A stretch of DNA of 64,000 bases from the IMG/VR virus record IMGVR_UViG_3300037475_000199, positions 1 to 64,000 of that record. One strand, given 5' to 3'. The notes beneath the pieces are model-generated. The model had not been told where the DNA came from and searched no databases. It saw nothing but the letters and a program-made list of their open reading frames with translations. How positions within the stretch are numbered: position 1 is the stretch's first letter; each line of letters opens with the position of its first letter. Source of the DNA: a virus. Shown in pieces: positions 2,227-58,371 of the stretch. The translations under genes were made by a program, and so were the position numbers.

Positions 2227-2303
2227 AGTCATCTAGTTTAATGGTAAAACGCCATCACATTTATGTGCCGGCGGAGATCTGGGTTCGAGTCCCAGGATGA
2301 TTT
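2227..2303 (+). tRNA. tRNA-like gene with an atypical anticodon region
   Basis: Acceptor AGTCATC pairs with GATGATT. Classic D-arm TAGTTTAATGGTAAAAC. T-arm CTGGG-TTCGAGT-CCCAG. The 28 nt between the D-arm and T-arm form CACAT-TT-ATGTG rather than a 5-bp stem with a 7-nt loop. Confidence 0.45.
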
Positions 2304-2514
2304 CTAATAACGAATGCAGTTTAGGTTTACAATACACGATCCTAAGGTAGTGACACTCTTCTATTCCTTAATTGGAAAGAGGAAATAGCAAGTACAGATA
2401 TAGTAATTTGATATCTTACGTGGCGAATACAGTAGCCTGATAAAAAGGAGCTGTACAGCAGATCACCAGAAACTTAGATAATATTTTGTCGTTATTATTT
2501 TTTAAAGGTGAAAT

Positions 2515-2628
2515 ATGAAGTGTAAGATTCATCCAAAATATAAAGCTATGAGAAAGCCTATAAAGACAGTTAAGTTTCCAAAAGGCTGTAAAGATTGTTT
2601 ATTGATATATAAGGAAATCAAACAATGA
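2515..2628 (+). CDS. very small basic protein (37 aa)
   Basis: ATG 2515 preceded by AAAGGTG. Its stop overlaps the next start (ATGA at 2625). Confidence 0.25.
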   Translation: MKCKIHPKYKAMRKPIKTVKFPKGCKDCLLIYKEIKQ

Positions 2629-2828
2629 AGATTTATAAGCACGTTTTATGTAAAAAGAATCTTTTCAAAAGCACATATAATGATTATGCTTTTGAAATTA
2701 ACAAATATTATTCTTTAGAAGATGAAGATTCGGAATTTTATTTCATAAAGGATAGTACGGGTCATAAATTTAATTTTTCTAAAGAAGTAGACGGTATATC
2801 CTATTGGATAGATGATTACTTTGAATAA
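2625..2828 (+). CDS. hypothetical small protein
   Basis: 67-aa ORF that is translationally coupled to the upstream small ORF. Confidence 0.3.
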   Translation: MKIYKHVLCKKNLFKSTYNDYAFEINKYYSLEDEDSEFYFIKDSTGHKFNFSKEVDGISYWIDDYFE

Positions 2829-2834
2829 CAATAT

Positions 2835-2911
2835 CGACCTCTAGCTCATTTGGTTAGAGTACTTCTCTGATAAGGAAGGGGTGCCGGGTTCGAATCCCGG
2901 GGGGTCGACCA
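2835..2911 (+). tRNA. tRNA-Ile (GAT)
   Basis: Acceptor CGACCTC pairs with GGGGTCG. D-arm GCTCATTTGGTTAGAGT. Anticodon stem CTTCT/GGAAG with loop CTGATAA. T-arm CCGGG-TTCGAAT-CCCGG. A73 with CCA. Confidence 0.75.
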
Positions 2912-2947
2912 TTTAAACAATATAATAATTTTAATTAGGAATTATAT

Positions 2948-3478
2948 ATGTGGGCAAAAGAAGATCAAAGAAAATCAGACCAAGCTTTTAGAGAAAGACG
3001 AAGAGCACGTACACATATTGAAATACCAATCAGTAAAATTTGTTCTGAATGTTTAATAGACAAACCGGCTAGTGAATTTACAAGAGACAAAGTCTCTAAA
3101 GATGGTTTAAAATTTCATTGCAAAGCTTGTACTAAAAAAGAAAATGATACTTGGAAAAACAAAAACTGGTTTAAAAAATTATTACATACCGCAAAATCAA
3201 CTTCGAAAAAATATAATCTTTTATTTGATCTGGATGAAGATTTTATAATTGGTTTGTTTAACTATCAAGATAGAAAGTGTTTTTACCTTGGAATAGATTT
3301 AGAGCCAGCATTTAATAGAAGAAAATTAAATTCTCCATCATTAGATAGAATAGATTGCAATAAAGGATATACTAAGGATAATGTGATTTTATGTTCACAA
3401 TTTGCCAATTTAGGTCGGTGTGATGTTCCTTTTGAAGAATTTAAAAATTTTTGCGATCAACTTATAAACAAGACTTGA
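2948..3478 (+). CDS. Endonuclease VII-like / HNH-type nuclease with Zn ribbon
   Basis: CSEC...CKAC zinc ribbon. C-terminal SLDRIDCNKGYTKDNVILCSQFANLG resembles the Endonuclease_7/HNH core (hlDHdh...vRGlLC..CN..lG). Confidence 0.45.
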   Translation: MWAKEDQRKSDQAFRERRRARTHIEIPISKICSECLIDKPASEFTRDKVSKDGLKFHCKACTKKENDTWKNKNWFKKLLHTAKSTSKKYNLLFDLDEDFIIGLFNYQDRKCFYLGIDLEPAFNRRKLNSPSLDRIDCNKGYTKDNVILCSQFANLGRCDVPFEEFKNFCDQLINKT

Positions 3479-3807
3479 AACAAATGCGAAAATTTAATAT
3501 GAAATGTTTTATTTGCAATAATGAGCTTGAAGCTCACACCGTTGGATTAGGTCACTTTTTAGTGTGCCCAATAGATAATATTATTGCTACATTAGGTGAT
3601 GACGGAAAAGTGAAGCACTATTCTTGTTATTATAAACAATATTCATTTAATATTAATTATATAACAAATAAAACAACTGTATCTAAGCAATCATTATCTC
3701 AGTTTAATGAACATACAATAATTACAATTATTGACAGTGCAATTTCTATGCCAACGTCATCAGATGATTTTTTAAAAAAAATTAAGACCATCTTGACATA
3801 TATGTAA
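3451..3807 (+). CDS. hypothetical Cys/His-rich protein
   Basis: ORF in the gene array with a C-x2-C...H motif. Confidence 0.35.
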   Translation: MRSTYKQDLKQMRKFNMKCFICNNELEAHTVGLGHFLVCPIDNIIATLGDDGKVKHYSCYYKQYSFNINYITNKTTVSKQSLSQFNEHTIITIIDSAISMPTSSDDFLKKIKTILTYM

Positions 3808-3818
3808 AAGAGGTTATA

Positions 3819-4013
3819 ATGTTCGGTGAAATCTGTAGCTGTGGCTGTCACAACAATAAAAATATAAGACATGTCATATCTTGTTGTGTTACTTGTCCTT
3901 CTTGTGATGGAAGAATTAAAACATCATTTTATGATAATCATGTTAAAAAATGTATTGAAGAATGTGAAGCTAGGCTTAAAGAATTAATTTCTAAATATAA
4001 AAAATTAGATTAA
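3819..4013 (+). CDS. small Cys-rich protein
   Basis: CSCGCH...CCVTCPSCDG zinc-ribbon-like motif. Confidence 0.35.
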   Translation: MFGEICSCGCHNNKNIRHVISCCVTCPSCDGRIKTSFYDNHVKKCIEECEARLKELISKYKKLD

Positions 4014-4384: not shown

Positions 4385-4681
4385 ATGACAAAAAGTTTAA
4401 TTATGAAAAATTTATTTTTAACTGTAGAAGAATTTAAATCTTCTTTACTCTCTGCTTTATTGAAAAATAATAAAACTTTTGTAGATGGAAAAAATTATAC
4501 TCAGTATAGTATTAGAAATGCTATTTATTGTTTGATTGAAATGGAAAAAGCAGCTCATCATTTTATAGATTTCCCATTAGAAGATCAAAAACAAATTATG
4601 TTTTGGGCTATTCAAATGCGAGATGAAGCTAAAAGAATTTTAAAAAAAGAATTTGACTTTTACTACGATTATTCAAAATGA
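4385..4681 (+). CDS. hypothetical protein
   Basis: ORF only. Confidence 0.35.
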   Translation: MTKSLIMKNLFLTVEEFKSSLLSALLKNNKTFVDGKNYTQYSIRNAIYCLIEMEKAAHHFIDFPLEDQKQIMFWAIQMRDEAKRILKKEFDFYYDYSK

Positions 4682-4914
4682 AAATTAATATAGAAAAAGC
4701 GTCTGCTAAAGCAAAGTGTCGTGGTATTAAATGTAAAAAAATGCCAGAATATATTAATCGTAAAGGTAGAATAAGAAAAGATACATCTTGTGCAGCTATT
4801 AGAATGTCCTCTAGTGGTGGCTGGCATACATCTTATTATTGTAGAGATTGCATTGATGTTATTTATTTAGATATGAAAGCGCAACTGAATCCTAGTTTAT
4901 GGATATTTAAATGA
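4678..4914 (+). CDS. hypothetical Cys-rich protein
   Basis: ATGA overlap with the upstream gene. CRGIKC...CRDC motif. Confidence 0.35.
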   Translation: MKINIEKASAKAKCRGIKCKKMPEYINRKGRIRKDTSCAAIRMSSSGGWHTSYYCRDCIDVIYLDMKAQLNPSLWIFK

Positions 4915-5815: not shown

Positions 5816-6787
5816 ATGAGTGGATTAACAAAATTAGCAATTATTTTAGGCGTATTTCTGGTGTCATCACTTCTTTTTGCAGCCTGTACCACTACAAGAG
5901 TAGATGTTGGTCATGTTGGCGTTAAAGTTAAATTAGCTGGTTCAGGGCGCGGCGTTCAAGATATGCAAATTAAAACTGGATGGGTGATTTTTAATCCATT
6001 AACAGAACAAGTTGTAGAGTTTCCGGTTTCAGTTCAAAATATTATTTTAAGCGCCGATCCACATGAAGGTGGCTCAAAAGATGATGCAACATCGGATCAT
6101 TCAGTTGATGAATCAATTACATTTTCTTCTATTGAAGGTGTTAATGCTACCGCAAATGTTGGATTCAGTTTCCACATTGATCCTAATAAGGCTCCACAGC
6201 TTTACGCAAGATTTAGACAAACTGATATGAGAGAGTTAGCTTATGGTTACATGAGAAATGTTATCAGAGAAGGTTTCAGTGAAGTTGGCTCTAAAATGCC
6301 AATTCAAGATATTTATGGTGCTGGTAAAACCAAACTTATTGCAGATGTAACTCATAAGTGTCAAGAGTCTCTTGGAAAAGATGGCGTAATTATTGATCAA
6401 TTAACCATTAATGGTGCTTTAAAACTACCTGAAAATGTTGCTGGTGCAATTAATAATGCTATGGCAGCAACACAAAATGCTATTCAAAGTGAAAATAAAG
6501 TTCGTCAAGTTAAAGCTGAAGCTGAACAAACTATTGCAACTGCACATGGTGCTGCGGAAGCTGCTCGTCAAAAAGCACAAGGTGAGGCTGATGCTCTTCT
6601 TATTAGTGCTGAAGCTGAAGCTAAATCAAGATTGATTAAAGCAGCAGCTGAAGCAAAAGCTAATGATACTGTTCAATCATCTTTGACTCCGCAAATTATT
6701 CGTTATCGTGCCATTAATAGCTGGGATGGTAAGCTCCCAACTTATTTAGGCTCTTCTGGTCCGCTACCAATGATTAATGTTCAATAA
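5816..6787 (+). CDS. SPFH/band-7 (prohibitin/HflK-C-like) membrane protein
   Basis: N-terminal TM followed by an SPFH-like core. C-terminal Ala/Glu-rich coiled coil (AEAEQTIATAHGAAEAARQKAQGEADALLISAEAEAK), as in HflK/C and prohibitins. Confidence 0.6.
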   Translation: MSGLTKLAIILGVFLVSSLLFAACTTTRVDVGHVGVKVKLAGSGRGVQDMQIKTGWVIFNPLTEQVVEFPVSVQNIILSADPHEGGSKDDATSDHSVDESITFSSIEGVNATANVGFSFHIDPNKAPQLYARFRQTDMRELAYGYMRNVIREGFSEVGSKMPIQDIYGAGKTKLIADVTHKCQESLGKDGVIIDQLTINGALKLPENVAGAINNAMAATQNAIQSENKVRQVKAEAEQTIATAHGAAEAARQKAQGEADALLISAEAEAKSRLIKAAAEAKANDTVQSSLTPQIIRYRAINSWDGKLPTYLGSSGPLPMINVQ

Positions 6788-16078: not shown

Positions 16079-16082
16079 AAAT

Positions 16083-16177
16083 ATAAAGTTGCGTGAGTGG
16101 ATTAAACGATCACCCGAGTCAGGGTGAGAAAGAACTTATAAAAAGTCTTTCCAAAAGTTCGAATCTTTTACTTTATA
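16083..16177 (+). tRNA. aberrant type II tRNA-like gene (18-nt anticodon arm; possible 8-nt loop; pseudogene?)
   Basis: Acceptor ATAAAGT pairs with ACTTTAT. Three-bp D-stem CGT/ACG. Anticodon region TCACCCGAGTCAGGGTGA. Long variable hairpin GAAAGA...TCTTTC. T-arm AAAAG-TTCGAAT-CTTTT. No CCA. Confidence 0.35.
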
Positions 16178-16182
16178 TTTAT

Positions 16183-16875: not shown

Positions 16876-17397
16876 ATGTCTAATGATGAAACTATATCTG
16901 GCTTAACTCAATTGCTATCGAACCATTCATGGTTTAATGGTGTAGGTGTTGATAATTTTGGTAAACTTATTGTTTATGTAAGTCATGCTACATTAGAAAT
17001 TATGAATGCCATTCCAGATAAATTTGAAAATAAAAGAGTTGTTTGGCAATATGCATCTTCAAAATCTGAGGTTGTTGCTGCAAAATATGCTGTAGTATAT
17101 AAACCTACTTATCATAATGCGCCAATTTATGTTCCTAATATTATTCCAGTGGATCAACCACTTCCAAAATATACTGAATCTGATATTGAACCAGACCTTA
17201 AATTTTTAATATCAGAACTTGATCGTTTAGAAAAACTTTGCGGATCAAGAGTGCTACAAGACTTGTTTTATGAAGTACATGATGGAAAAAATTCAGTAAC
17301 AACCTTAAAGAATAAATTTCCAGAAATCTATGATGATGTTTTAGATTTATATGAAGAGTTTGGGTTTGATATTATGTATAATGAGTTAGATGGCTAA
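16876..17397 (+). CDS. hypothetical protein
   Basis: ORF only. Confidence 0.4.
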   Translation: MSNDETISGLTQLLSNHSWFNGVGVDNFGKLIVYVSHATLEIMNAIPDKFENKRVVWQYASSKSEVVAAKYAVVYKPTYHNAPIYVPNIIPVDQPLPKYTESDIEPDLKFLISELDRLEKLCGSRVLQDLFYEVHDGKNSVTTLKNKFPEIYDDVLDLYEEFGFDIMYNELDG

Positions 17398-17726
17398 TGT
17401 CTGATAAAAAAGAAATAAGAAGAAAATTTAGAGATGTATGCTTAAAACGCGACAAGATTACATGCGCAAAGTGTGGTCTTAAAGCAAAAAATATGGAAGA
17501 AGCATTAAAAATCTTTGACGTTCATCATATTACAGACAGAAAAGAAATGCCCAACGGCGGATATGTTTTAGAGAATGGAATTACTTTATGTCACGAGTGT
17601 CATGTTAAGGCAGAAGAATTTCACTCTACAGGGAATGCTGTTCCAGGATATTCGATTAAAGAGTTGTATATTGTAATTAATTCTAATTATGATGCAGCAG
17701 TAAAAGCAAGTGAAAAACTAAAATGA
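17397..17726 (+). CDS. small HNH endonuclease
   Basis: CAKCG...HH...NG..LCHECH gives the HNH motif with a zinc ligand pattern. Confidence 0.5.
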   Translation: MSDKKEIRRKFRDVCLKRDKITCAKCGLKAKNMEEALKIFDVHHITDRKEMPNGGYVLENGITLCHECHVKAEEFHSTGNAVPGYSIKELYIVINSNYDAAVKASEKLK

Positions 17727-20452: not shown

Positions 20453-20710
20453 ATGGCTGATTCAAATCCTAACTTTAATTTTTTTATGTTTAAAAACAAT
20501 GGATATACAATCCAAGTAATAATTAAATTTAATAACAATAAATTAGAATTAAAGTTAAAGTTTTTTGATATTAATTATAATTTAATTGGAAATAGTTCTT
20601 TAAATTTTAATATAATAAATAGAAAAATTAAATGGGAACAACCTGTTTGGATAAGCCAAGATTGTATGGATTACTGTGACAAACTCTTAAATTTAAGAGC
20701 ATTTGCATGA
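20453..20710 (+). CDS. 'LKxF-tail' family small protein
   Basis: Ends ...DYCDKLLNLRAFA. Confidence 0.45.
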   Translation: MADSNPNFNFFMFKNNGYTIQVIIKFNNNKLELKLKFFDINYNLIGNSSLNFNIINRKIKWEQPVWISQDCMDYCDKLLNLRAFA

Positions 20711-20955
20711 TAAGTTATAGGTTTTCAGATAAGGGCAAAATTTTTTCTAAAACTGATTATATTATTTTTATTAATTCTAACTTTATTGAAATTGATTTTC
20801 ATATTTATAATAAAGGTAAAATATTAATCTCTACTTCGGCTGAATTTAAAATTGATAATAGTTCTATTAATTGGAATGAACGATTAATAGAATTTATTTC
20901 TGATGAATGTAAAGAATATTGTAATAAGTTGATAAAATTAAAAGCATTTACGTAA
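20707..20955 (+). CDS. 'LKxF-tail' family small protein
   Basis: Ends ...EYCNKLIKLKAFT. ATGA overlap. Confidence 0.45.
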   Translation: MISYRFSDKGKIFSKTDYIIFINSNFIEIDFHIYNKGKILISTSAEFKIDNSSINWNERLIEFISDECKEYCNKLIKLKAFT

Positions 20956-20980: not shown

Positions 20981-21589
20981 ATGCAAAAAATACAAATTGT
21001 AATAGGGGCAGATGAATGTGGCTATGGCTCACTTGCTGGACCATTAGTAGTTTGTGGCGTAAGGGCTCCAGAAAATTGGACTATGTCAGGATTAAAGGAC
21101 TCGAAAAAATTTAAAGATTCGAAGGGCTTGACAGCGCACCAACAACGACAAATAGTATCTGATGAACTTCAGAAAAGGATCGCTAACAAAGAAATTTCAT
21201 TTCATATTGCTGAAAGATCCAATTCTCAAATTGATTCGACTGGTGTAGCTGTTGCTTTAAAAGATTCTTTTGTAGAAATTTTTAAAGCACTATATAGTAA
21301 TGATGATAGAATTATTACTGACGGAATTTTAAATTTCAAATCTTATAATCTTAATTTTTCAATTGAATCCATTGTAAAGGCTGATGATAAATTTGCTACA
21401 GTAATGGCAGCATCTATTATCGCAAAAGCTTATAGAGATAGTAAAATGAAGTCATTGCACTTATTACATCCTATGTATGGGTGGGAGTCAAATTCTGGTT
21501 ATGGATCAAAAGATCATTTAGATGCAATAAATAAATTTGGACCATGCTTATTGCATCGGTTTTCATATGCTCCAATGAAGAATATGTAA
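20981..21589 (+). CDS. rnhB: ribonuclease HII-like
   Basis: N-terminal IGADECGYGSLAGPLVV matches the RNase HII GIDEAGRGPLAGPVV catalytic motif. Confidence 0.6.
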   Translation: MQKIQIVIGADECGYGSLAGPLVVCGVRAPENWTMSGLKDSKKFKDSKGLTAHQQRQIVSDELQKRIANKEISFHIAERSNSQIDSTGVAVALKDSFVEIFKALYSNDDRIITDGILNFKSYNLNFSIESIVKADDKFATVMAASIIAKAYRDSKMKSLHLLHPMYGWESNSGYGSKDHLDAINKFGPCLLHRFSYAPMKNM

Positions 21590-21622: not shown

Positions 21623-22324
21623 ATGAATTTATGTTTATTTTGTAATAAGGAAATTGTTAATAAAAATAATAAATTTTGTAATCGTAGTTGTGCAGCTTCT
21701 TTTAATAATTTAAAGAGGCATCAAGAAGGGTATACTTTAAATGGCAAATCAAAAGTTTTAAATTGTTTAGATTGTAAGGTAGAATTAATTGTGCCACTTA
21801 ACTCCTCTAATTCTATTAGGTGTACAGATTGTTATTTGCACCACATTAACAATAAAGAAATAATTTGCGCAAAATGTAATGAAAAGTTTGTTGGAGCATA
21901 TTATAGAGAATATTGCAATGATTGTTTGCATTTGATTCGCGTAGAACAAGGTAGAATTGGTGGCTTAATAAGAAATACAATCAGAGTTAAACGCTCCAAA
22001 AACGAAATACACTTTGTAAATTTATGTATAGATTATTTTGGTATTGATAATGTGTTGTTAAATGAATCTATGTTTGATGGTTGGGACGCAGATGTTATAA
22101 TAAAAGTTTTAAAAATTGCTGTTTTATGGAATGGGAAATGGCATTATGAAAAAATAACTGAAAAACATTCTTTGTCTCAAGTTCAAAATAGAGATAAAAT
22201 AAAAAAAGACATTATAATGAAATATGGATATATTCCATATATAATAAAGGACATGGGAAGTGAATCAATATTATTTGTTAAAGATGAATTTGATAAATTT
22301 GTTGAATATAGTAAATTAGTTTAA
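21623..22324 (+). CDS. Zn-finger-rich hypothetical protein
   Basis: Multiple CxxC pairs in the N-terminal half. The 3' end overlaps tRNA-Met by about 15 nt. Confidence 0.4.
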   Translation: MNLCLFCNKEIVNKNNKFCNRSCAASFNNLKRHQEGYTLNGKSKVLNCLDCKVELIVPLNSSNSIRCTDCYLHHINNKEIICAKCNEKFVGAYYREYCNDCLHLIRVEQGRIGGLIRNTIRVKRSKNEIHFVNLCIDYFGIDNVLLNESMFDGWDADVIIKVLKIAVLWNGKWHYEKITEKHSLSQVQNRDKIKKDIIMKYGYIPYIIKDMGSESILFVKDEFDKFVEYSKLV

Positions 22325-22383
22325 TGGTAAAACCTCTGTCTCATAAGCAGAAGACAACGGATCGTAACCGTTATTTACTACCA
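22310..22383 (+). tRNA. tRNA-Met (CAT) (elongator or Ile2-type; unusual T-loop)
   Basis: A1:U72 acceptor, AGTAAAT pairing with ATTTACT. D-arm GTTTAATGGTAAAAC. Anticodon stem TCTGT/GCAGA with loop CTCATAA. T-arm AACGG-ATCGTAA-CCGTT has A54. A73 with CCA. Confidence 0.6.
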
Positions 22384-22413
22384 ATGTTGGTTCGAATCCA
22401 ATTATCAGCACCA
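22384..22413 (+). other. orphan tRNA 3'-half (T-arm plus acceptor 3' strand plus CCA)
   Basis: ATGTTGG-TTCGAAT-CCAAT followed by TATCAGC-A-CCA. No matching 5' acceptor strand (GCTGATA) occurs upstream. Confidence 0.45.
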
Positions 22414-22420
22414 ATTAATT

Positions 22421-22666
22421 ATGTATTATACACAAACTATTAAAGATAAAATTTACACCATGCATTTCACTGGTGAAGGGCTAGGAACTTTATGGGTAAG
22501 ATCTGTTGACGGCGCAAACAAATATTATTCCAACTCTACTATAGTATTTAAAAAGAGTGGTAAAATAAGATATGGAAAAGAAAACGGCTGGCATTTACCA
22601 GTTGAATTCATGATTAATTGCGATAAGATTTATAAAAGACTTTTAAAAATAAACGCTTTTATTTAA
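22421..22666 (+). CDS. 'LKxF-tail' family small protein
   Basis: Ends ...IYKRLLKINAFI. Confidence 0.45.
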   Translation: MYYTQTIKDKIYTMHFTGEGLGTLWVRSVDGANKYYSNSTIVFKKSGKIRYGKENGWHLPVEFMINCDKIYKRLLKINAFI

Positions 22667-23094
22667 TCACCAGCAATCATTTCGCCGGAACTTTCAGGTT
22701 TATAAGTCAAATTCATAGCAAATTGACTATAATTGATAGATTTACCATCATACATACTAGGAAATAATTCCCAATTTTTATTTAGGTATTTTTCTATTTG
22801 AACAACTAATGGCTGATATTTAGCAGTTAAATTGCTAGGAGAAACATCAAAATTTAATACTTTAATACTTTTAAAGCCTAAAGTATCATTTCTGACAACT
22901 ACAAAGTTAATAGTAGCTCCATCAGAATTAATCATTAATGGGAAATTTAATATCCCAATATTAGATAAAGCTGCATTTTTTATGGCTTGCCAAATGGATT
23001 TTTCTATTTCTGGTTTAATAGAATTAGCATTAATGGAAGCATATTTCTTGATCCAAGTCTCACCCAAAGTTATTAAATAGTCTGTTCTCTTCAT
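22663..23094 (-). CDS. hypothetical protein (minus strand)
   Basis: 143-aa ORF convergent with the array. Its start codon is followed by a tRNA pair. Confidence 0.4.
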   Translation of the reverse strand: MKRTDYLITLGETWIKKYASINANSIKPEIEKSIWQAIKNAALSNIGILNFPLMINSDGATINFVVVRNDTLGFKSIKVLNFDVSPSNLTAKYQPLVVQIEKYLNKNWELFPSMYDGKSINYSQFAMNLTYKPESSGEMIAGD

Positions 23095-23127: not shown

Positions 23128-23202
23128 CGGTAATTAACTCAGAGGTAGAGTGCTACTCTAACACGATGGAAGTCACTGGTTCAAATCCAGTATTATCGAC
23201 CA
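23128..23202 (+). tRNA. aberrant tRNA (anticodon loop CTAACAC reads AAC; Val-like duplicate?)
   Basis: Acceptor CGGTAAT pairs with ATTATCG. D-arm ACTCAGAGGTAGAGT. Weak anticodon stem CTACT/GATGG with one mismatch and two G-U pairs. T-arm ACTGG-TTCAAAT-CCAGT. CCA present. Confidence 0.4.
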
Positions 23203-23206
23203 TTAT

Positions 23207-23280
23207 GCCCGATTAACTTAGTGATAAAGTGCTGGTTTTACAAGCCGGAATCGAAAGTTTGATTCTTTCATCGGGTACCA
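23207..23280 (+). tRNA. tRNA-Val (TAC)
   Basis: Acceptor GCCCGAT pairs with ATCGGGT. D-arm ACTTAGTGATAAAGT. Anticodon loop TTTACAA. T-arm GAAAG-TTTGATT-CTTTC. A73 with CCA. Confidence 0.65.
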
Positions 23281-23711: not shown

Positions 23712-24008
23712 ATGTATATTTATAAAAATCATACAGACACTCATTTACTTTCTGTTGAAATGAAATTTATAAAGATGTCTAAAAAAACTGTTGGATATGA
23801 TAAAGGTATTTGTATTGAAATAAAAGGATATACGATTGATGATTATAATTTTGAATATACTTTAGGATCATATTCTTATCCATATCCAATTTTTGAAGGA
23901 GAAATTTTATGGAATCCTCTATCTAAAATGGACAAAGAATTTGATATAGATGTGGCGGATTTAAAAAAGTTTTGTGAAAAAATAGTAAAGTTAAAAATAT
24001 TTGAATGA
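23712..24008 (+). CDS. 'LKxF-tail' family small protein
   Basis: Ends ...FCEKIVKLKIFE. Confidence 0.45.
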   Translation: MYIYKNHTDTHLLSVEMKFIKMSKKTVGYDKGICIEIKGYTIDDYNFEYTLGSYSYPYPIFEGEILWNPLSKMDKEFDIDVADLKKFCEKIVKLKIFE

Positions 24009-24244
24009 AATTTATATATAAAGACAAATATGTTCCAAACTTAAATATTTCAGTAATTTTGGCAGATAATAATTTTGGAGTATATGTGGATGATTATCCT
24101 TACAATTTTGATAATGATATGGTATTTGAAGGTACTTTAAAAAATGTGGTTGAGTGGCATTATGCCTTTGTTGAATATAATATTGATGCCCATGCACTTA
24201 AAAGATTTTGTAGGTGTTTAATAAAAAATAAAGCTTTTATCTGA
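24005..24244 (+). CDS. 'LKxF-tail' family small protein
   Basis: Ends ...FCRCLIKNKAFI. ATGA overlap. Confidence 0.45.
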   Translation: MKFIYKDKYVPNLNISVILADNNFGVYVDDYPYNFDNDMVFEGTLKNVVEWHYAFVEYNIDAHALKRFCRCLIKNKAFI

Positions 24245-34633: not shown

Positions 34634-36085
34634 ATGAGAACAGTAATCGCAAGAAAAGAAGACTTAGAACATAGCAACGTTACCGACACTGATAGTTACA
34701 AGTTTAGCCATTTTATTTTATATAAGAAGGCTGGCGTAACTAGAATGTTTAGTTATCTAGAGTCTCGTGGTGGTGAATTTGATGTTTCTACTATTTCAGC
34801 CCTACAAGTAGCATTACATAGATACATTGCAAAAGGATTTAAGAGAAAGGACATTGATCGTGCAGAAAAGCTTGCAGCTAAACATGGCGTCCCTTTCAAT
34901 CGTCCAGGATTTGAAGCCATGTATAACAAATATAATGGTAAGTTTCCAGTTAGAATTAGATCTATTCCTGAAGGTATGATAGTTCCAGTTTCAACTGCAC
35001 TATTAACTATTGAGTGTTGTGACGAAGATTGTTTTTGGATTGTCAATTGGCTAGAGACTTTATTATCTAGAATTTGGTATCCTTCTACTATTGCAATTGC
35101 AAGTCGTTCAGTCAAGAAACTTTGGAAGCACTTCTTAGATATGACTTCCGATAATACTGATCTCGAAATTGGATTTAAGCATCATGATTTCGGATCTAGA
35201 GGAGTAACCTGCTTTGAGCAAGCCGAATTGGGCGGTATGGCTCACTTGTTGAGCTTCTTTGGTTCTGATACTTTAGCGGGTGTTGAGCTTGCCAATTACT
35301 ACTATGATTGTGATATGTCAGGATTCTCGATTTGTGCTACTGAACATTCTACCATGACTATTTTTGGTCGTGCTGGTGAACGTCAAGCACTTATTGATTG
35401 GATTACTGAAACATTGGTTAATGTTCCAAATATTCCTGGTGTACCTAAAGTGTCTGCTTGTGTTGGTGACAGCTACAATATCTATGATTTTACTACACTA
35501 GTAAGTCGTGATGATGAGGTAAGAAACTTAATTGCTAATTCAGGGGGCACTTTAGTAGTAAGACCAGATAGCGGTAAACCATCTGAAGTTCTTCCTAAAA
35601 TATTGGAATTGTTTGAGCAAAACTTGCCATCAGGATCTATTACTGTTAATAGTAAGGGATACAAAGTTCTACCTTCATATTTGAGACTTATTTGGGGTGA
35701 TGGCATTAACCGTCGTTCAATGAAAGATATTCTTCAATTAGTAGTTGATCTTGGTTGGAGTGCATCTAATATTGCGTTAGGTTCTGGTGGCGGTTTATTG
35801 CAAGATGTTAATCGTGATACACAGAAGTTTGCTTTTAAGTGTTCGTTTGCTGAAGCAAAAGGCGTCTCAATTGATGTTCTTAAAGATCCAATCACTGATC
35901 CTGGAAAGAAATCAAAAGCGGGTCGCCTTGACACTATTAAGCTTCCAGATGGTGAAATTAAAACAGTCTCCATTGGAGTAAATGAAGAATGTCATCCTCT
36001 TAGCATTATGAATACTGTTTTTGAAATGGGAGATATTACTTATCACACTACGTTCGCTGAATGTAGAGACAGAATGGCGCTATGA
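34634..36085 (+). CDS. nadV: nicotinamide phosphoribosyltransferase (NAMPT/NadV)
   Basis: DTDSYKFSHF near the N-terminus matches the NAMPT DSYK motif. About 480 aa, the size of NadV. Confidence 0.65.
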   Translation: MRTVIARKEDLEHSNVTDTDSYKFSHFILYKKAGVTRMFSYLESRGGEFDVSTISALQVALHRYIAKGFKRKDIDRAEKLAAKHGVPFNRPGFEAMYNKYNGKFPVRIRSIPEGMIVPVSTALLTIECCDEDCFWIVNWLETLLSRIWYPSTIAIASRSVKKLWKHFLDMTSDNTDLEIGFKHHDFGSRGVTCFEQAELGGMAHLLSFFGSDTLAGVELANYYYDCDMSGFSICATEHSTMTIFGRAGERQALIDWITETLVNVPNIPGVPKVSACVGDSYNIYDFTTLVSRDDEVRNLIANSGGTLVVRPDSGKPSEVLPKILELFEQNLPSGSITVNSKGYKVLPSYLRLIWGDGINRRSMKDILQLVVDLGWSASNIALGSGGGLLQDVNRDTQKFAFKCSFAEAKGVSIDVLKDPITDPGKKSKAGRLDTIKLPDGEIKTVSIGVNEECHPLSIMNTVFEMGDITYHTTFAECRDRMAL

Positions 36086-37970: not shown

Positions 37971-38885
37971 ATGTGTAATGTACTCGTAGGCACAGCTGTT
38001 GGTGATGCTTTAGGTGTTCCATTTGAAACTTTTTTGATAAATAATCCTCTTCTTTTAGATTGGGATGGAACAACTTATCTTGGAAGTAAATATCATGGTT
38101 TAGAACCAGGTCAATACTCAGATGACACTCAACTATCTATTTTGGTTGCTAAATCATTAATATTAAATTCTGGATTTAATCCAGACGATTTAGCTGCAAG
38201 ATATCAAGATTGGTTTTTTTCTGGCGTTGCACGAGGTTATGGTAAAACAACAAAGTTAGCTATGGAAGCTCTTAAAAGTGGTAAACATTGGAATGAATCT
38301 GGGATTGCCGGCTCTTTAGGTAATGGAACGGCTATGCGTGCAGCTCCATTTGGAGTTTACTTTAGAAATGATTTTAAACAATTAATTGCTGCAGTAAAAA
38401 TAGATTCAGCAATTACGCATGTTTCAGAAGATGCTGAAGCTGGAGCTATTGCTATTGCATTAACAGCAGCTTATGCCGTTAATCGTAACACTGAAAATCT
38501 TTTAGACAAAATTTGTGAAAATTTACCAGACTGTAAAGTTAAAAAAACAATTTCTAGTTTGGATGCATTAATTAACGCAGATAATATTACTCCTCCACAA
38601 GCTTTAAGAGTATTGGGGACAAAGGCTAATGTACAAGAAACTGTGCCCGCAGCATTATATTGTTTTCTGAAATTTGATAATTATCACGATGCTGTGCTTG
38701 CTGCAATTAAAGCTGGTGGTGATACCGACACTACTGCCGCAATAGTTGGAGCTTTATTTGGAGCCAGAGATGGAATCAAAAAGATAGATAGAAAATTTTA
38801 TTCGGTAGAAGATTTTGATAAATTAATAGAGTTAGATAGCCAGCTTTATAACAGATCTAATTCATTATTTTTTCCTAGAAACTAA
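37971..38885 (+). CDS. ADP-ribosylglycohydrolase (ARH/DraG family)
   Basis: N-terminal VLVGTAVGDALGVPFE matches the ARH GdAlG...E motif. C-terminal AGGDTDTTAAIVGALFGA is the metal-binding D-T-D region. Confidence 0.6.
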   Translation: MCNVLVGTAVGDALGVPFETFLINNPLLLDWDGTTYLGSKYHGLEPGQYSDDTQLSILVAKSLILNSGFNPDDLAARYQDWFFSGVARGYGKTTKLAMEALKSGKHWNESGIAGSLGNGTAMRAAPFGVYFRNDFKQLIAAVKIDSAITHVSEDAEAGAIAIALTAAYAVNRNTENLLDKICENLPDCKVKKTISSLDALINADNITPPQALRVLGTKANVQETVPAALYCFLKFDNYHDAVLAAIKAGGDTDTTAAIVGALFGARDGIKKIDRKFYSVEDFDKLIELDSQLYNRSNSLFFPRN

Positions 38886-44087: not shown

Positions 44088-44278
44088 ATAAAAAATATTT
44101 TGTAGTTTATTATGTTTGGGACACTTTTCGAGGGTGGAATGGTCCAATGAATATTCTTATAGATAAACATCCCTTAAAGTGGCTTAAAGAAGATAAGATT
44201 GCGTTATCAAAAGAACATAGTTGGGATGACATTTCTATTTCTTGGTGGCAATTATTAGAGGAAGATTATGACAAATAA
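44084..44278 (+). CDS. small hypothetical protein
   Basis: ATGA overlap. Confidence 0.3.
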   Translation: MNKKYFVVYYVWDTFRGWNGPMNILIDKHPLKWLKEDKIALSKEHSWDDISISWWQLLEEDYDK

Positions 44279-45029
44279 AGATAGTTTAGGCGACAGAATA
44301 AAGGCTTATGAGGATTGTTATAGAGTACAATTACCTCAAAGAATGCCAGTTATTCTTAGGGTTGATGGCAAATCATTTCATAATTATACCAAAGGTTGTA
44401 AAAGACCTGTTGACGAGAACCTTGTCAATTGTATGAATGAGACAGCAAAATATCTTTGTGAAAATATTCAGGGAGCAAAATTAGGATATGTACAATCAGA
44501 TGAAATATCTATATTATTAACTAACTATGAAACAATAAATACGCAATCATGGTTCGATAATAATTTGGTTAAAATGGTTAGCATATCTTCGGCTTTAGCT
44601 TCAGCTAAATTTACCTCTATTTCTGACACTATTTTTGGTAAGCCTAAAATGGCAGTTTTTGACAGTCGAGCTTTTGTAGTTCCAGTTAATGATGTTTGTA
44701 ATTATTTTTTATGGAGACAACAAGATTGTACCAGAAATTCAGTTCAAATGTTAGCTAGAAGTCTTTATTCTCATAAAGAATGTAATAATAAGAACAATTC
44801 TCAATTGCAAGAGATGTGCTTTCAAAAAGGTATTAATTGGAATGATTGCCCTACATCTCAAAAACGTGGTAGATGTATAATTAAACAATACAAGGTTAAA
44901 ACTGGAACTAATATTAAAACTGGCGAACAATTTTCTGCAGAACGTTCCAGTTGGGAAGTTGATAACGAAATTCCAATTTTCTCATTAGATAGAAATTATA
45001 TTAATAAACTAATAATTCTTAAAGACTAA
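44268..45029 (+). CDS. tRNA(His) guanylyltransferase Thg1-like protein (TLP)
   Basis: VILRVDGKSFHNYT compares with the Thg1 rIDGkkFH motif. KRPVDEN compares with the PxDE motif. YVQSDEISILL compares with GESDEYSFI. Confidence 0.6.
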   Translation: MTNKDSLGDRIKAYEDCYRVQLPQRMPVILRVDGKSFHNYTKGCKRPVDENLVNCMNETAKYLCENIQGAKLGYVQSDEISILLTNYETINTQSWFDNNLVKMVSISSALASAKFTSISDTIFGKPKMAVFDSRAFVVPVNDVCNYFLWRQQDCTRNSVQMLARSLYSHKECNNKNNSQLQEMCFQKGINWNDCPTSQKRGRCIIKQYKVKTGTNIKTGEQFSAERSSWEVDNEIPIFSLDRNYINKLIILKD

Positions 45030-49168: not shown

Positions 49169-49720
49169 ATGATCAGTGGTCTTAAATATATTCCCAATTT
49201 TATATCTTTAGATAATGAATTATCTTTAATTCATACTATTGACAATCAAATTTGGTCTAAAGATCTTAAAAGAAGAACTCAGCATTATGGTTATAAGTAT
49301 GATTATACTAACAAATCAATTGATGAATCTTTATATTTAGGAAGAATACCTCAGTGGTTAGAAAAATATTGTTTTAAACTTTATGATAATAAGTTTTTTG
49401 AGAAGTTGCCGGACCAAGTAATTATAAATGAATATTTGCCTGGGCAAGGAATTAATAAACATGTTGATTGCGTTCCATGTTTTGATCATACCGTTGCCTC
49501 TTTAAGCTTAAATTCAAGTTGTGTTATGTGTTTTGAAAATATTTATACGCATAAAGTTGGTGAACTGGCATTAGCACCATTAAGTTTATTGGTTTTGTCG
49601 GGCGAATCTAGATTTGAATGGATGCATTCTATTCCAGCTAGAACAAGAGATGTAATTTCTGATCAGGTTTTACCTCGTGGAAGAAGAATCTCTTTGACAT
49701 TTAGAACTGTTTTGTTATAA
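49169..49720 (+). CDS. AlkB-family 2OG-Fe(II) dioxygenase
   Basis: INEYLPGQGINKHVDCVP gives the H-x-D motif. A later H (WMHSIP) and RRISLTFR give the R-x-S motif. Confidence 0.55.
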   Translation: MISGLKYIPNFISLDNELSLIHTIDNQIWSKDLKRRTQHYGYKYDYTNKSIDESLYLGRIPQWLEKYCFKLYDNKFFEKLPDQVIINEYLPGQGINKHVDCVPCFDHTVASLSLNSSCVMCFENIYTHKVGELALAPLSLLVLSGESRFEWMHSIPARTRDVISDQVLPRGRRISLTFRTVLL

Positions 49721-50628
49721 ATTTTCCAGTCTTGTTCCCAAATAGATATAATTTTATATCCCGCCTCTATTAAAATATTTTCTCTATTTATAGTTTGTGA
49801 GTATAATTCACCAAATGTTTTATTGACAAATTTGTTAAAATCATTTGAATCAAATTTTTTAGGATTACCATGCCAATAGTCTCCATAAAATTCATAAACT
49901 ATGTTTGTAATTGGATCGAGAGCATCTACAAAATATTTTTTATTATTTATATATGATTGCCTATATTCTTGTGGTATTTGCAATTGGTTTAACCAATCAA
50001 TTTCTTGTTTTGAAATTCTGTTAATACATTTTGGACAACCTTGTCCAGATAAATGGTTATTAGGAGTTTGATTAAATTCACCATGTAATAAACAAATTAT
50101 TGTGATTTTAGTTGCATGATTTTTATATATCACTTTTGAATAATCAAATTTATCGCCATGAATGTCATTTGCTTTTACATTAAATTCTTCTAATGTTAAT
50201 CGTATGCTTTCTGAATTTTTTAGTTTGCCACATTTAGGACAACCTTTTCCACATTTATGAAGATGAGGCGTTTGCAAAAATAAACCATGTATTGGACAAA
50301 TTATTTTAATATGTTTATTTACTGAAATGTATTCAACTTCATGATAATCATAAAAATTATTATGAATTAATATAAATTCCTCAATCACATCTTTTGTTGT
50401 AAGGGTTCTGTTTTTGCCTGATGTAATTTTACTACATAATGGGCAGCCCTGACCATTTAAATGATGATTAGGTGTTTTGTAAAATTTACCATGAATTTTA
50501 CAGATTATGATTACTTTGACGCTGGAACAAATATAAATAGTTTCTGAATAATCATAAATATTATTATATATGGCATTAGCTTTTTTTAAAAAATTTTCTT
50601 GTGTAAATGCTTTGTCCATTTTAACCAT
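49663..50628 (-). CDS. homing-endonuclease-like protein: triple Zn-ribbon repeat plus Vsr/DUF559-type PD-(D/E)xK nuclease domain (minus strand)
   Basis: The motif H-G-x-F-x-Q-TP-x-x-HL-x-GQGCP-x-C occurs three times. C-terminal YEFYGDYWHGNPKKF...ISIWEQDW compares with the Vsr-like YEFDGdyWH motif. Confidence 0.5.
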   Translation of the reverse strand: MVKMDKAFTQENFLKKANAIYNNIYDYSETIYICSSVKVIIICKIHGKFYKTPNHHLNGQGCPLCSKITSGKNRTLTTKDVIEEFILIHNNFYDYHEVEYISVNKHIKIICPIHGLFLQTPHLHKCGKGCPKCGKLKNSESIRLTLEEFNVKANDIHGDKFDYSKVIYKNHATKITIICLLHGEFNQTPNNHLSGQGCPKCINRISKQEIDWLNQLQIPQEYRQSYINNKKYFVDALDPITNIVYEFYGDYWHGNPKKFDSNDFNKFVNKTFGELYSQTINRENILIEAGYKIISIWEQDWKIYNKTVLNVKEILLPRGKT

Positions 50629-54184: not shown

Positions 54185-55690
54185 ATGGCAGAGAAATTAG
54201 TTGCTTATTCGGCAGGCGAAGAACCGTCTTTTCCTGGAGATTATGATGTAGTAAAAAGGACTACATTAAATTTTACAGACATTATTAACAACAACAATAA
54301 ATATTATAATTTAGAAGTTCAAGTTGCTAAGAATGGCAGTTCAAGAATTTTTACTCAGTATGGTCGAGTAGGCGGAACGGCAGCCAAAGAATATCGAGTA
54401 GCAGCTAATCAGTCTCATGCTGAAACTGAAGCCGAAAAAATTATCAAGTCCAAAACTAAAAAGGGCTATGTTGAAGTTAAATTGGTAAAAGCTGATATTG
54501 GGTCCGAAGCAGGCAAGGCTAAAGTTGATACTTCAGCTTCTAGCGTATCAGTTGATACACTTAAAAAGATGGGTGTTAAAGTTCAGGAAGCAGAAACCAG
54601 TAAATTACATCCTGAAATTGGAGATTTAGTTAGAACTTGGTTCGGCGTTACACAGGAATTTATTGAATTAAATCTTGACACTAAAAAGTGTCCATTAGGT
54701 CAATTATCGATTGATCAAATTGATAAAGCAAAAGAAATATTAGATGAAGCTCGTTTAATTATTCATGCATCTAAACCAGATGTATTAGAATTAAATAAAT
54801 TAACTAACTCTTATTATAGTAACATTCCTCATAACTTTGGTTATGGTAGAATTAATGCCGATGTACTTCGTTTAGACAACGATGATAAGGTAAATAAAGC
54901 TTTTGATATATTAGATGTTTTTGGTTCAGCTAAAAACGTTCAAAGTGTTATTTCAAAGAAATCGGCTGTAGACTCTCAGTATGCCACTTTAAATGCTGAT
55001 TTAAATTTTATTGATCCAAAAGATCCTATTTGGAAATGGATTGACACTATGTTGCATGAGACTAAAGCTAGCAATCATCATTTCTTAGGCAAATTAAAAA
55101 CTCATAAAATTTATAAAGTAAATCGTAAAGGTGAAGAACAGTATTTTCTTAAGAATGCAGAGAAGATTGCTAAAGAATGTGGAAAGCATGATCCTTCTCC
55201 AGTTTACTCTAAATTAGTTAAATCTCGCCCAGATGTATCAAAAGAGCTAAGAGATTTGTATGCAAGAGCTAACGTTTCTCCTGGTTGGCATGGAACTCGT
55301 AGAGCTAATATGATTGGCATTACTACTAAAGGTCTTTTAATTAGACCTTCAGGTGTAGTTCATGCTGGTTCAATGTATGGTGACGGTGTTTACTGGGCTA
55401 CTAATAGTACTAAGAGCATCAATTACTGTGATGTTCGTGGCTCATATTGGGCTGCTGGTACAAATAAAACGGCTTATTTATTCTTAGGTGATGTTGCTTT
55501 TGGTAATTATAAATATGCTAATGGCTCACAATATTATAATAGAAAGAATATTTCGCCAGCACATTCTGTTTTTGCTCAAGGCGGGAAGAGCGGAGTATTG
55601 AATGACGAAATTATTACTTATACTCCATCGGGTCCAGAGCAACAACATTGTTTAAGATATATTATTGAATTCGAAACACAAGCAAAATGA
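54185..55690 (+). CDS. PARP-like ADP-ribosyltransferase (WGR domain plus PARP catalytic domain; H-Y-D variant)
   Basis: WGR-like YYNLEVQ...QYGRVGG. Catalytic WHGTRRANMIGI...GSMYGDGVYWA carries the H-G-T motif and Tyr. YLFLGDVAFGNY aligns with PARP1 LLLGEVALG, with Asp in place of the catalytic Glu. Confidence 0.6.
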   Translation: MAEKLVAYSAGEEPSFPGDYDVVKRTTLNFTDIINNNNKYYNLEVQVAKNGSSRIFTQYGRVGGTAAKEYRVAANQSHAETEAEKIIKSKTKKGYVEVKLVKADIGSEAGKAKVDTSASSVSVDTLKKMGVKVQEAETSKLHPEIGDLVRTWFGVTQEFIELNLDTKKCPLGQLSIDQIDKAKEILDEARLIIHASKPDVLELNKLTNSYYSNIPHNFGYGRINADVLRLDNDDKVNKAFDILDVFGSAKNVQSVISKKSAVDSQYATLNADLNFIDPKDPIWKWIDTMLHETKASNHHFLGKLKTHKIYKVNRKGEEQYFLKNAEKIAKECGKHDPSPVYSKLVKSRPDVSKELRDLYARANVSPGWHGTRRANMIGITTKGLLIRPSGVVHAGSMYGDGVYWATNSTKSINYCDVRGSYWAAGTNKTAYLFLGDVAFGNYKYANGSQYYNRKNISPAHSVFAQGGKSGVLNDEIITYTPSGPEQQHCLRYIIEFETQAK

Positions 55691-57627: not shown

Positions 57628-58371
57628 ATGTTTAATAAATTTAATAAAATTTTAAACCTAATAAAACAAAGTTCTTCTCCATTTATTTTGTGTGCCATCG
57701 CTGCTGCATGTGATAATAAAGGAGAAATCCCTATATCGACATCTTTTTATAAACAAATAATAACTAAATATGGACCAAATATATCTAAAGGTAAAACTCC
57801 CCAAAATACTTTAAGCACATTATTACAATATCAGACTGGACTTGGAAGAACTATATTTCGTCGTAGGTCAAATAATTTAGAGTTAATAGATAAATCATAT
57901 TTGTCCACATTAAAAGAAGTTGCGCTTAGTTATTTGCCACCAACTTCTTTAAACATTAATAATGTTAAGCCTTTTATATCACTAACGACTCAAGCGCCGC
58001 AACCTTTAATTGATGAATTTAAAGTTCCTAAACAACATTTACAATCATACTTAAATGAAGGAATTTATATTGGAGTTGATCAAGAAACAAAAGATGGCAA
58101 AATTCAAATTAAAATAGGAAGATCTAATGATATTAAATCTCGTTTTAAAAGTTTAAAGCCGTATAAACTTGGAGCAATAGTGTCTGCTGACTTTTCAATC
58201 AAAGAAGAAAACAAATTTAAAAATAAATATTTGGAATTTAAACATGACGGCGAATATTTTCTTGTACCAAAAGATATATATAAAGAAATTATATCTTTAG
58301 ATGTTTCAAAAGAATATTCGCCTATTTCTTTAAAAAAGAAAATAGAAGATTTAATTGGAAAGAAAATATAA
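57628..58371 (+). CDS. hypothetical protein
   Basis: ORF only. Confidence 0.4.
   Translation: MFNKFNKILNLIKQSSSPFILCAIAAACDNKGEIPISTSFYKQIITKYGPNISKGKTPQNTLSTLLQYQTGLGRTIFRRRSNNLELIDKSYLSTLKEVALSYLPPTSLNINNVKPFISLTTQAPQPLIDEFKVPKQHLQSYLNEGIYIGVDQETKDGKIQIKIGRSNDIKSRFKSLKPYKLGAIVSADFSIKEENKFKNKYLEFKHDGEYFLVPKDIYKEIISLDVSKEYSPISLKKKIEDLIGKKI

Follow-up and report, generated by a model that had tools for sequence, protein, structure and literature searches.

Introduction

Precise 3' fragments of transfer RNA (tRNA) genes are typical of integrase-mediated insertion into tRNA genes. Fungal mitochondrial atp6/LAGLIDADG elements leave a comparable trace: they are endonuclease cassettes that bring in a replacement gene end, and the resident copy is displaced as a downstream pseudogene fragment. 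Here we describe a 28-nt orphan tRNA fragment in 64 kb of AT-rich huge-phage DNA (positions 1 to 64,000 of IMG/VR record IMGVR_UViG_3300037475_000199; this stretch, hereafter the window, is what all window-wide searches cover). The fragment follows an intact tRNA(CAT) gene, which we call tRNA-22310 after its first position, and this gene in turn overlaps the end of an open reading frame (ORF) of 233 codons, ORF233, that encodes a putative homing endonuclease. A sequence-only reading of the window had described the fragment as a classic scar of either site-specific integration (an att site) or tRNA gene recombination and turnover. We conclude that it is a recombination scar of tRNA gene turnover and not an integration site. 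The arrangement resembles the fungal elements in that a nuclease and a functional substitute are followed by a displaced, truncated resident end, but the substitute here is a complete tRNA gene of an unrelated lineage rather than an in-frame gene end, and co-mobility of ORF233 and tRNA-22310 is hypothetical. Taken alone, the orphan tRNA half is an ordinary scar, and the combination of a tRNA gene remnant with a free-standing Vsr-like homing endonuclease gene in a phage tRNA array is a fresh example of kinds already known.

Two described nuclease systems are pertinent. SegB, a GIY-YIG endonuclease, resides in the tRNA clusters of T-even phages, cuts there and drives microhomology-mediated rearrangements (PMC13096335), and it offers the closest analogy for the events that we propose. 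Like SegB, ORF233 would be a selfish nuclease gene inside a phage tRNA array, its family is statistically associated with tRNA genes, and the array rearrangements would proceed via short homologies between the end of the nuclease gene and a tRNA gene. In contrast to the GIY-YIG fold of SegB, ORF233 has a predicted Vsr-like fold, and it gave no GIY-YIG match in Pfam or PHROGs. The ORF233 family favors tRNA(CAT), while SegB has no preference among isotypes; SegB leads to tandem amplification, whereas the outcome here would be replacement and truncation. The second system is the EDxHD family, of which the prototype, I-Bth0305I, has an active site composed of D196, N208, H213 and D222; in the motif, the Asp binds Mg, the His acts as the general base and a second Asp completes the set, and free-standing phage enzymes of the 'Hef' type have been placed in the same family (PMC3239194).

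The source phage is huge and Lak-like; the only annotated phage that matched the locus was Prevotella phage Lak-C1.

Results and discussion

The orphan fragment has an intact counterpart in a related phage

The fragment lies on the plus strand at 22386-22413 and corresponds to tRNA positions 49-76. It consists of the T-stem strand GTTGG (22386-22390), the T-loop TTCGAAT (22391-22397), the T-stem strand CCAAT (22398-22402), the 3' acceptor strand TATCAGC (22403-22409), the discriminator A (22410) and CCA (22411-22413), and is separated from the CCA of tRNA-22310 by the dinucleotide AT (22384-22385). ARAGORN called 17 tRNAs in the window, 15 of them confirmed by Rfam, and of the 16 canonical T-arm motifs there, the fragment alone falls outside the called tRNAs. 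It is unique within the window at up to three mismatches and was not detected by Rfam at E ≤ 10. The sequence-only reading had found no 5' partner for it, and this held up: the window contains none, GCTGATA occurs there only at chance frequency, and no copy of GCTGATA is followed by a D-arm. We rejected a split or trans-joined tRNA, since the window lacks a 5' half and the break is at 48/49 rather than in the anticodon loop. An intron-containing tRNA was likewise rejected: when ARAGORN was relaxed to 85% thresholds and allowed introns, its one product was a spurious 'tRNA-Ser' on the minus strand with a 113-nt intron.

Apart from the window, exact matching against IMG/VR located the full fragment only in a 448-kb phage contig (L001, which equals L036 and L044 in our numbering of loci), where it forms the 3' end of an intact tRNA(CAT) gene. 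The two sequences are identical at 29 of 29 positions (L001:5391-5419), compared to approximately 70-73% identity in the flanking DNA, so the match is more than chance. The intact gene, GCTGATA...TATCAGCACCA (also written GCTGATAGCGCC...GTTGGTTCGAATCCAATTATCAGCACCA), is called by ARAGORN and scores 41.6 bits with Rfam. When it was used as a blastn-short query against the window, only its 28-nt 3' part was matched (E = 6e-11), and it is identical to tRNA-22310 at only 43 of 77 positions. The two genes occupy the same slot. In L001, the order is RNase HII, 28 nt, tRNA(CAT), 8 nt and tRNA-Val(tac); in the window, it is RNase HII, ORF233, tRNA-22310, the fragment, two small ORFs, tRNA-Val(aac) and tRNA-Val(tac). 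The left anchor of the slot is the RNase HII gene (20981-21589, plus strand; Pfam PF01351, E = 2.9e-31), and the right anchor is the pair tRNA-Val(aac) and tRNA-Val(tac) (23128-23280, plus strand; called by ARAGORN and Rfam), of which tRNA-Val(tac) (23207-23280, plus strand) is shared with L001. Because a tRNA-Thr(ggt) gene in an unrelated contig ends with the same 25-nt 3' sequence, the isotype of the fragment rests on synteny and not on the fragment alone; the synteny with L001 favors tRNA(CAT), and a tRNA-Thr origin was not preferred. The fragment is thus what is left (positions 49-76) of a resident-type tRNA(CAT) gene after loss of its first 48 nt.

An assembly or sequencing artifact is argued against by two sequences. 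A Logan contig from SRR12917118 (L037), possibly from the same sample, is 100% identical to the window over 9.9 kb including the locus, and a decayed form of the same junction is present in an independent sample (L043, discussed below).

The precision of the fragment, CCA included, is what one would look for in an att scar, that is, an integrase-mediated insertion into a tRNA gene or a phage attP matching a host tRNA. As in the att duplications of integrative elements, a precise tRNA 3' part (T-arm, acceptor strand and CCA) lies next to an intact tRNA gene. Unlike those duplications, however, the fragment does not repeat the 3' end of its neighbor, which in tRNA-22310 is CCGTTATTTACTACCA, and the context is a lytic-type huge-phage tRNA array. 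Exact searches with a 25-mer, or with a 22-mer lacking the CCA, gave no match in 185,579 bacterial and archaeal genomes (one genome per species), so that the host attB suggested by the sequence-only reading did not materialize. A second copy that could form an attL/attR direct repeat was not found in the window at up to three mismatches. An integrase, which the sequence-only reading had also suggested looking for, did not turn up either: Pfam matched no integrase or recombinase among the window's 20 largest ORFs; these ORFs are typical huge-phage auxiliary genes (among them SPFH, OMP decarboxylase, NAMPT, ADP-ribosylglycohydrolase, UvrD, Thg1-like, NAD-ligase, Dam, PARP-like and radical SAM proteins), and the immediate neighbors of the fragment are RNase HII, ORF233 and small ORFs. 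The intact counterpart, moreover, is at a syntenic position in a related phage and not in a bacterium. With no host tRNA match, no twin repeat and no integrase in the searches made, the att reading fails and we regard it as extremely improbable, while the other half of the earlier scar claim, tRNA gene turnover, holds: L001 has the intact gene in the same slot. For annotators, the practical consequence is that ORFs running into tRNA genes, and tRNA remnants, are to be expected in such arrays and should not be taken for att sites.

ORF233 encodes a putative Vsr-like homing endonuclease

ORF233 (21623-22324, plus strand; 233 amino acids [aa]) runs into tRNA-22310, its last five codons with the stop lying within the tRNA gene. 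The overlap, which the sequence-only reading had put at about 15 nt, is exactly that (22310-22324), and the TAA of the ORF lies inside the tRNA D-loop. What that reading missed is the homing-endonuclease-type nature of the overlapping coding sequence. The N-terminal region (21623-21973, plus strand), comprising about 115 residues, contains three CxxC...CxxC zinc ribbons (Cys 4/7/19/23, 48/51/67/70 and 82/85/98/101) and gave weak matches to DZR_2 and to a PHROG annotated as 'HNH endonuclease'. In homologs, the zinc ribbons are swapped for HTH_38, NUMOD3, TFIIB-type ribbons and other DNA-binding modules. The C-terminal part, of about 115 residues, is highly conserved, and alignments of 48 and of 18 homologs showed E128, D155, D157, K164, N170, H174 and D191 to be invariant (plus strand; E128 at 22004-22006, D155/D157 at 22085-22093, N170 at 22130-22132, H174 at 22142-22144 and D191 at 22193-22195). 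This predicted catalytic domain (21974-22309, plus strand) matches the hidden Markov model of the family with E = 8.5e-54 and is its only copy in the window.

Neither Pfam nor NCBIfam has a domain for the core of ORF233, and no informative PHROG match to the core was obtained; homologs number more than 1,000, nearly all of them unnamed. An AlphaFold model built from 48 sequences had a mean confidence (pLDDT, predicted local distance difference test) of 93.7, and the best Foldseek match of this model was Vsr. When the family profile was compared with the PDB, the only notable match was I-Bth0305I (3R3P), with marginal E values of 0.083 and, for the catalytic domain, 0.024. In the alignment, D157, N170, H174 and D191 fall on D196, N208, H213 and D222 of I-Bth0305I, off by one at the His.

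The likeness to EDxHD enzymes thus extends to the predicted C-terminal Vsr-like (PD-(D/E)XK-derived) fold, to the same catalytic set of Glu, Asp, Asn at the 'x' position, His and Asp, to a separate and modular N-terminal region that is predicted to bind DNA, and to a phage-encoded, patchy distribution. ORF233 differs from I-Bth0305I in having three zinc ribbons at its N terminus instead of NUMOD or helix-turn-helix modules, in the N-to-H spacing (4 vs. 5), in a longer H-to-D spacing, and in its setting: I-Bth0305I is encoded by an intron in recA, but ORF233 is a free-standing gene lying flush with a tRNA(CAT) gene. Because a Vsr-like nuclease with an EDxHD motif and a modular DNA-binding N terminus has the architecture of a homing endonuclease, we consider ORF233 a putative free-standing Vsr-like/EDxHD homing endonuclease. 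We infer that it is active and targets tRNA(CAT) genes. If the assignment is right, more than 1,000 'hypothetical' proteins become annotatable as Vsr-like/EDxHD-type homing endonucleases, which extends a small family.

The ORF233 family is associated with tRNA(CAT) genes

The association was evaluated in 26 non-redundant loci, namely 25 IMG/VR loci whose ORF233 homologs are 35-62% identical, plus the window. In 10 of the 26, the 5' end of a tRNA(CAT) gene lies within approximately 6 nt (49 nt at most) of the end of the conserved protein, and in three further loci the 3' end of a minus-strand tRNA(CAT) gene meets the 3' end of the ORF. Another tRNA is adjacent in five loci (Ile-gat, Ile-tat, Lys, Ser and one doubtful call), so that 13 of 18 adjacent tRNAs are CAT, compared to a background of 7-12% (p = 7e-9 to 4e-12). 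The ORF often has no stop codon of its own and ends inside the tRNA gene, frequently at a TAA that follows the CAT anticodon, and many homologs in the databases have read-through tails into the tRNA. The RNase HII gene is absent from all 25 IMG/VR loci; ORF and tRNA(CAT) therefore lie side by side in contexts that are unrelated to one another, which inherited synteny does not account for. These results make the ORF233 family a candidate tRNA-gene-specific nuclease.

Some neighboring tRNA-like genes are unusual in their own right. Two tRNA(CAT)-like genes beside ORF homologs were not called by ARAGORN at default settings: one (L033, about 3690-3850) has an insertion of approximately 75 nt, seemingly in the D-loop region, and the other (L027, about 3620-3710) seemingly has a long extra arm. 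Several loci (L006, L013, L019, L033 and others) contain uncalled T-arm motifs, often with GAGTTACTTCG/A about 30 nt upstream, and these may represent a class of non-canonical tRNA-like genes in large-phage arrays. A census of orphan T-arms near ORF homologs was unreliable for this reason: most are unusual tRNAs that ARAGORN misses, and we rejected them as independent scars.

In Lak-C1 (L113, MK250029.1 458292-463559, reverse complement; region 2500-3090), a homolog of the nuclease domain contains a TAG that breaks it when read with the standard code, which agrees with the alternative coding reported for these phages. A tRNA(CAT)-like element that follows the homolog is below the Rfam threshold, and two further T-arm-like segments lie at about 3010-3090 outside called tRNAs. 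With its tRNA(CAT)-like element below threshold, Lak-C1 was left unconfirmed as a named example of the association.

The slot between RNase HII and the Val tRNAs is a hot spot

An alignment of RNase HII used as the query, but not a single RNase HII protein, found syntenic relatives of the slot. In about 20 related huge-phage contigs, RNase HII is followed by 0-1.8 kb of variable DNA and then by one tRNA(CAT) gene, with the Val cluster after it in nearly all. At least three lineages of tRNA(CAT), unrelated in sequence, occur in the slot: the resident type (in L001 only), the tRNA-22310 type and a 'CGYGGTG...' type that is present in most contigs. An ORF233 gene occupies the slot in the window, L043 (58% aa identity), L038, L039-42, L110 and L112, always with a tRNA-22310-type gene flush after it; the same arrangement in the contig of P0005 was judged from a read-through tail. 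ORF233 is absent from the slot in L044-L063. In L046 and L047, however, the tRNA-22310-type gene is preceded by a distant member of the nuclease family (hhalign probability 95%, E = 2.6e-8) that is reversed and frameshifted, being split into two minus-strand ORFs (L046 3107-3761, same in L047); the tRNA(CAT) beside it has a normal T-loop, TTCGATT. Given the three or more tRNA(CAT) lineages, the variable insert and the second family member, the slot is a hot spot for this nuclease family and for tRNA(CAT) replacement. In Lak-like megaphages, the slot offers a natural experiment in tRNA gene replacement, one that bears on how huge-phage tRNA repertoires are remodeled.

These comparisons also bear on whether ORF233 might be an RNA-processing or tRNA-related factor co-encoded with tRNA(CAT) for functional reasons, with the fragment being unrelated debris. 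The best fold and sequence matches are to DNA nucleases with the full catalytic set conserved, and the N-terminal modules are of DNA-binding types, including NUMOD3. Close syntenic relatives, all of which retain a tRNA(CAT) gene, differ in whether they have the nuclease gene; this gene can point either way with respect to the tRNA, and one copy is frameshifted. We therefore consider a role of this kind very unlikely.

In three contigs, the slot holds small class II aminoacyl-tRNA-synthetase-like ORFs upstream of tRNA(CAT) (L049 3126-3833, L056 3078-3815 and L060 4257-4817; tRNA-synt_2b, E = 2e-6, and tRNA-synt_2, E = 8e-7).

tRNA-22310 is a constrained gene with an unusual T-loop

tRNA-22310 (22310-22383, plus strand) is called tRNA-Met(cat) by ARAGORN, which does not separate Met from Ile2 (lysidine) tRNAs; it encodes its CCA and scores 61.7 bits with Rfam RF00005 over 22310-22380. 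The unusual features pointed out by the sequence-only reading are real. The acceptor strands, AGTAAAT and ATTTACT, form an A1:U72 pair, and the T-arm AACGG-ATCGTAA-CCGTT gives A54, U55, C56, G57, U58, A59 and A60. Among five orthologs, which score 51-61 bits with Rfam, the cloverleaf is kept and 9 of 21 base pairs show compensatory changes, and tRNA-22310 is a constrained gene and, as far as its sequence tells, a functional tRNA(CAT).

These features proved less special than they had seemed. A1:U72 is specific to the gene in the window and is a compensated variant, its orthologs having G1:C72 or G.U at this position. The A54...U58 loop is kept in most of the lineage, two orthologs having AGCGTAA or AGCATAA. 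U54 is regarded as universal save in eukaryotic initiators (PMC7912444), which makes an A54 loop unusual, but a further 20 or so phage tRNA(CAT) genes in IMG/VR have a GGATCGT loop, and an unselected census of these large-phage loci found the A54/U58 loop in 11 of 294 distinct tRNAs (approximately 4%), these being Met, Ile-gat, Gln, Val and Pro tRNAs (window 22310-22383; L003, L004, L006, L007, L022, L028, L030 and L057). An A:U or U:A pair at 1:72 is present in 8 of the 11 tRNAs with this loop vs. 61 of 270 canonical ones (Fisher p = 8e-4), in a small sample that includes orthologs. tRNAs with the A54/U58 loop and a weak 1:72 pair may constitute a distinct structural class of phage tRNA.

The combination of A1:U72, A54 and A60 recalls initiator tRNAs of the eukaryotic/archaeal type. 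We rejected this identity: position 58 is U and not A, the anticodon stem (UCUGU/GCAGA) has no G29-G31:C39-C41 run, A1:U72 is absent from the orthologs, and the phages have the loop in their tRNAs for Val, Ile, Gln and Pro too. We also rejected the idea that the odd T-loop is a mutation conferring immunity to the nuclease. Only one of the approximately 20 loop-bearing tRNA(CAT) genes has a family member adjacent to it, nuclease-linked tRNAs elsewhere have normal loops, and the loop of the companion tRNA of P0005 is seemingly normal, as judged from the read-through tail.

A second tRNA(CAT) call in the window (2227-2304; 78 nt, Rfam 46.3 bits) has an odd anticodon arm. Its first 24 nt (acceptor 5' strand and D-arm) match tRNA-22310 at 21 positions, after which the two diverge completely, and it is possible that this gene is chimeric or paralogous. 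The Rfam gathering threshold was not reached by the ARAGORN calls at 1548-1622, a tRNA-Ile(tat), and at 16082-16178, a 97-nt 'tRNA-???' with a four-base anticodon (agtc).

A proposed nuclease-linked replacement of the resident tRNA gene

We favor, with fair but not high confidence, a history in which the fragment was left as a scar when a resident tRNA(CAT) gene was replaced by ORF233 and tRNA-22310 in a nuclease-linked event. A resident-type tRNA(CAT) gene once sat between RNase HII and the tRNA-Val cluster. During a co-infection, the nuclease would cut the tRNA(CAT)-bearing allele that has no nuclease gene, and repair from the nuclease-bearing genome would copy the ORF together with tRNA-22310. 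One end would be resolved by an illegitimate or very-short-homology join inside the resident tRNA gene, which has lost its first 48 nt; the break falls at the variable-loop/T-stem boundary, 2 nt past the CCA of tRNA-22310, and tRNA-22310 would now supply the function of the displaced tRNA(CAT). ORF233, the homing-endonuclease-type gene that overlaps the adjoining tRNA, is the likely agent and would be the cause of the truncation in the window. The mechanism we infer by analogy with free-standing homing endonucleases. The comparisons themselves establish the identity and origin of the fragment, the fold and motif of the nuclease, the flush link of its family to tRNA(CAT) genes irrespective of context, the patchy distribution among syntenic relatives and the absence of att features.

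The relatives that bear on the age of these events, a comparison that the sequence-only reading had recommended, supplied not only the intact counterpart in L001 but also a decayed junction in L043. There, the 31 nt after the CCA of the tRNA-22310-type gene match 'AT' plus the fragment in register at 19 positions (background mean of 8.4, with 3e-5 of window positions reaching 19) and begin with the same AT; in L038, the corresponding sequence is ATA, followed by the end of the contig. L043 therefore seems to have this junction in decayed form, and the truncation probably took place before the window and L043 split. By RNase HII, the closest sampled relative of the window is L001 (64% aa identity vs. 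54-58% for others). In the four genomes that have both proteins, ORF233 and RNase HII gave the same quartet topology (bootstrap values of 72% and approximately 100%); since the quartets agree, there is no sign of recent transfer, and we rejected a recent horizontal transfer of the cassette.

Several of these observations weigh against the replacement that we favor. Half of the family loci have no tRNA(CAT) at the end of the ORF. The pair of ORF233 and tRNA-22310 looks old and vertically co-inherited at the locus. The junction is seemingly shared with L043, yet L001 has an intact resident gene, and a one-step insertion in the lineage of the window does not fit this without extra recombination. 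The remnant is also undecayed, with 0 differences in 29 positions, which under neutral decay at flank-like rates has a probability of approximately 1e-4 to 2e-3. The last two conflicts would be resolved if occupied and empty alleles had recombined, or if an intact copy elsewhere had served as a source of gene conversion.

The strongest competing explanation is a plain deletion in a tandem pair of tRNA-22310 and a resident tRNA(CAT), kept as redundant or differently specialized CAT tRNAs, in which the nuclease had no causal part: an ordinary replication or recombination deletion would have removed the spacer and 48 nt from the start of the second gene in the window lineage, and the L001 lineage would have lost the ORF and tRNA-22310. 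Tandem tRNA(CAT) pairs do occur downstream of ORF homologs (L018 and L029), indels are abundant in the tRNA arrays of these phages, ORF233 and tRNA-22310 were apparently inherited vertically, and no remnant follows the tRNA-22310-type gene in two other occupied relatives, L039 and L110. On the other hand, tRNA-22310 and a complete resident-type gene do not occur together in any sampled syntenic genome, L043 has the junction as well, members of this nuclease family have entered the slot twice, and the family is strongly tied to tRNA(CAT) genes irrespective of context. We regard a plain deletion as a real possibility, though clearly the less probable one.

The pristine state of the fragment raises the question of whether it was kept because it is useful, either as a homology arm on the downstream side, which would let the cassette of ORF and tRNA-22310 recombine into genomes with the resident-type tRNA(CAT) and would be renewed by gene conversion each time, or as an RNA element such as a processing signal or decoy. 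Its full identity to a functional tRNA in L001 stands out against the orthologous tRNA-Val(tac), which is identical at 55 of 74 positions, and against the flanks, and neutral decay would rarely leave it unchanged; the L043 copy, in the meantime, has decayed to 19/31. High tRNA identity with L001 is not unique, however, as the orthologous tRNA-Gly is identical at 82 of 84 positions. A homology arm of 28 bp would be very short, the DNA downstream of the remnant is not L001-like, and the remnant has been lost from most occupied relatives. As an RNA, the fragment folds no better than its shuffles (z = -1.07) and is not accompanied by a terminator. A retained function is, on balance, quite unlikely.

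A bolder proposal would combine several of these elements: the ORF233 family would be an undescribed, large Vsr-like clade that lands specifically at tRNA(CAT) genes of huge phages and moves as cassettes of a nuclease and a replacement tRNA, exchanging one lineage of tRNA(CAT) for another, with the remnant as a conserved homology arm refreshed by conversion. We think this rather unlikely as a whole, but if it were true, the homology-arm element would explain the pristine remnant, the cassettes would provide a route for the exchange of atypical tRNAs (those with the A54/U58 loop and a weak 1:72 pair), and the exchanged tRNAs may resist host defenses that target tRNAs.

Other features of the window

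Between the remnant and the Val tRNAs (22421-23094) are two small ORFs of 81 aa (plus strand) and 143 aa (minus strand), which have no Pfam match and are absent from this position in L001. Small paralogous ORFs of 79-142 aa recur among the tRNA genes, on the plus strand of the window at 20453-20710, 20707-20955, 22421-22666, 23712-24008 and 24005-24244 and in L001 at 1945-2220, 2673-3053, 4469-4711 and 6273-6701. They share the C-terminal motif ...C..(Y)C.K(L/I).KL(R/K)(A/V)F(A/T/I/E) and gave no Pfam match.

Other candidate selfish nucleases in the window are a treble-clef zinc-finger ORF (49663-50628, minus strand; DUF4379/DUF723), a T5orf172/MUG113 (GIY-YIG-like) ORF (57628-58371, plus strand) and a small HNH ORF (about 17397-17726, plus strand), the last identified by Pfam on the identical Logan contig L037. 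The window also encodes a eukaryote-like PARP with WGR, PARP regulatory and catalytic domains (54185-55690), a Thg1-like tRNA-His guanylyltransferase (44268-45029), NAMPT (34634-36085) and an ADP-ribosylglycohydrolase (37971-38885), a set that suggests an NAD/ADP-ribose module together with a tRNA-repair module.

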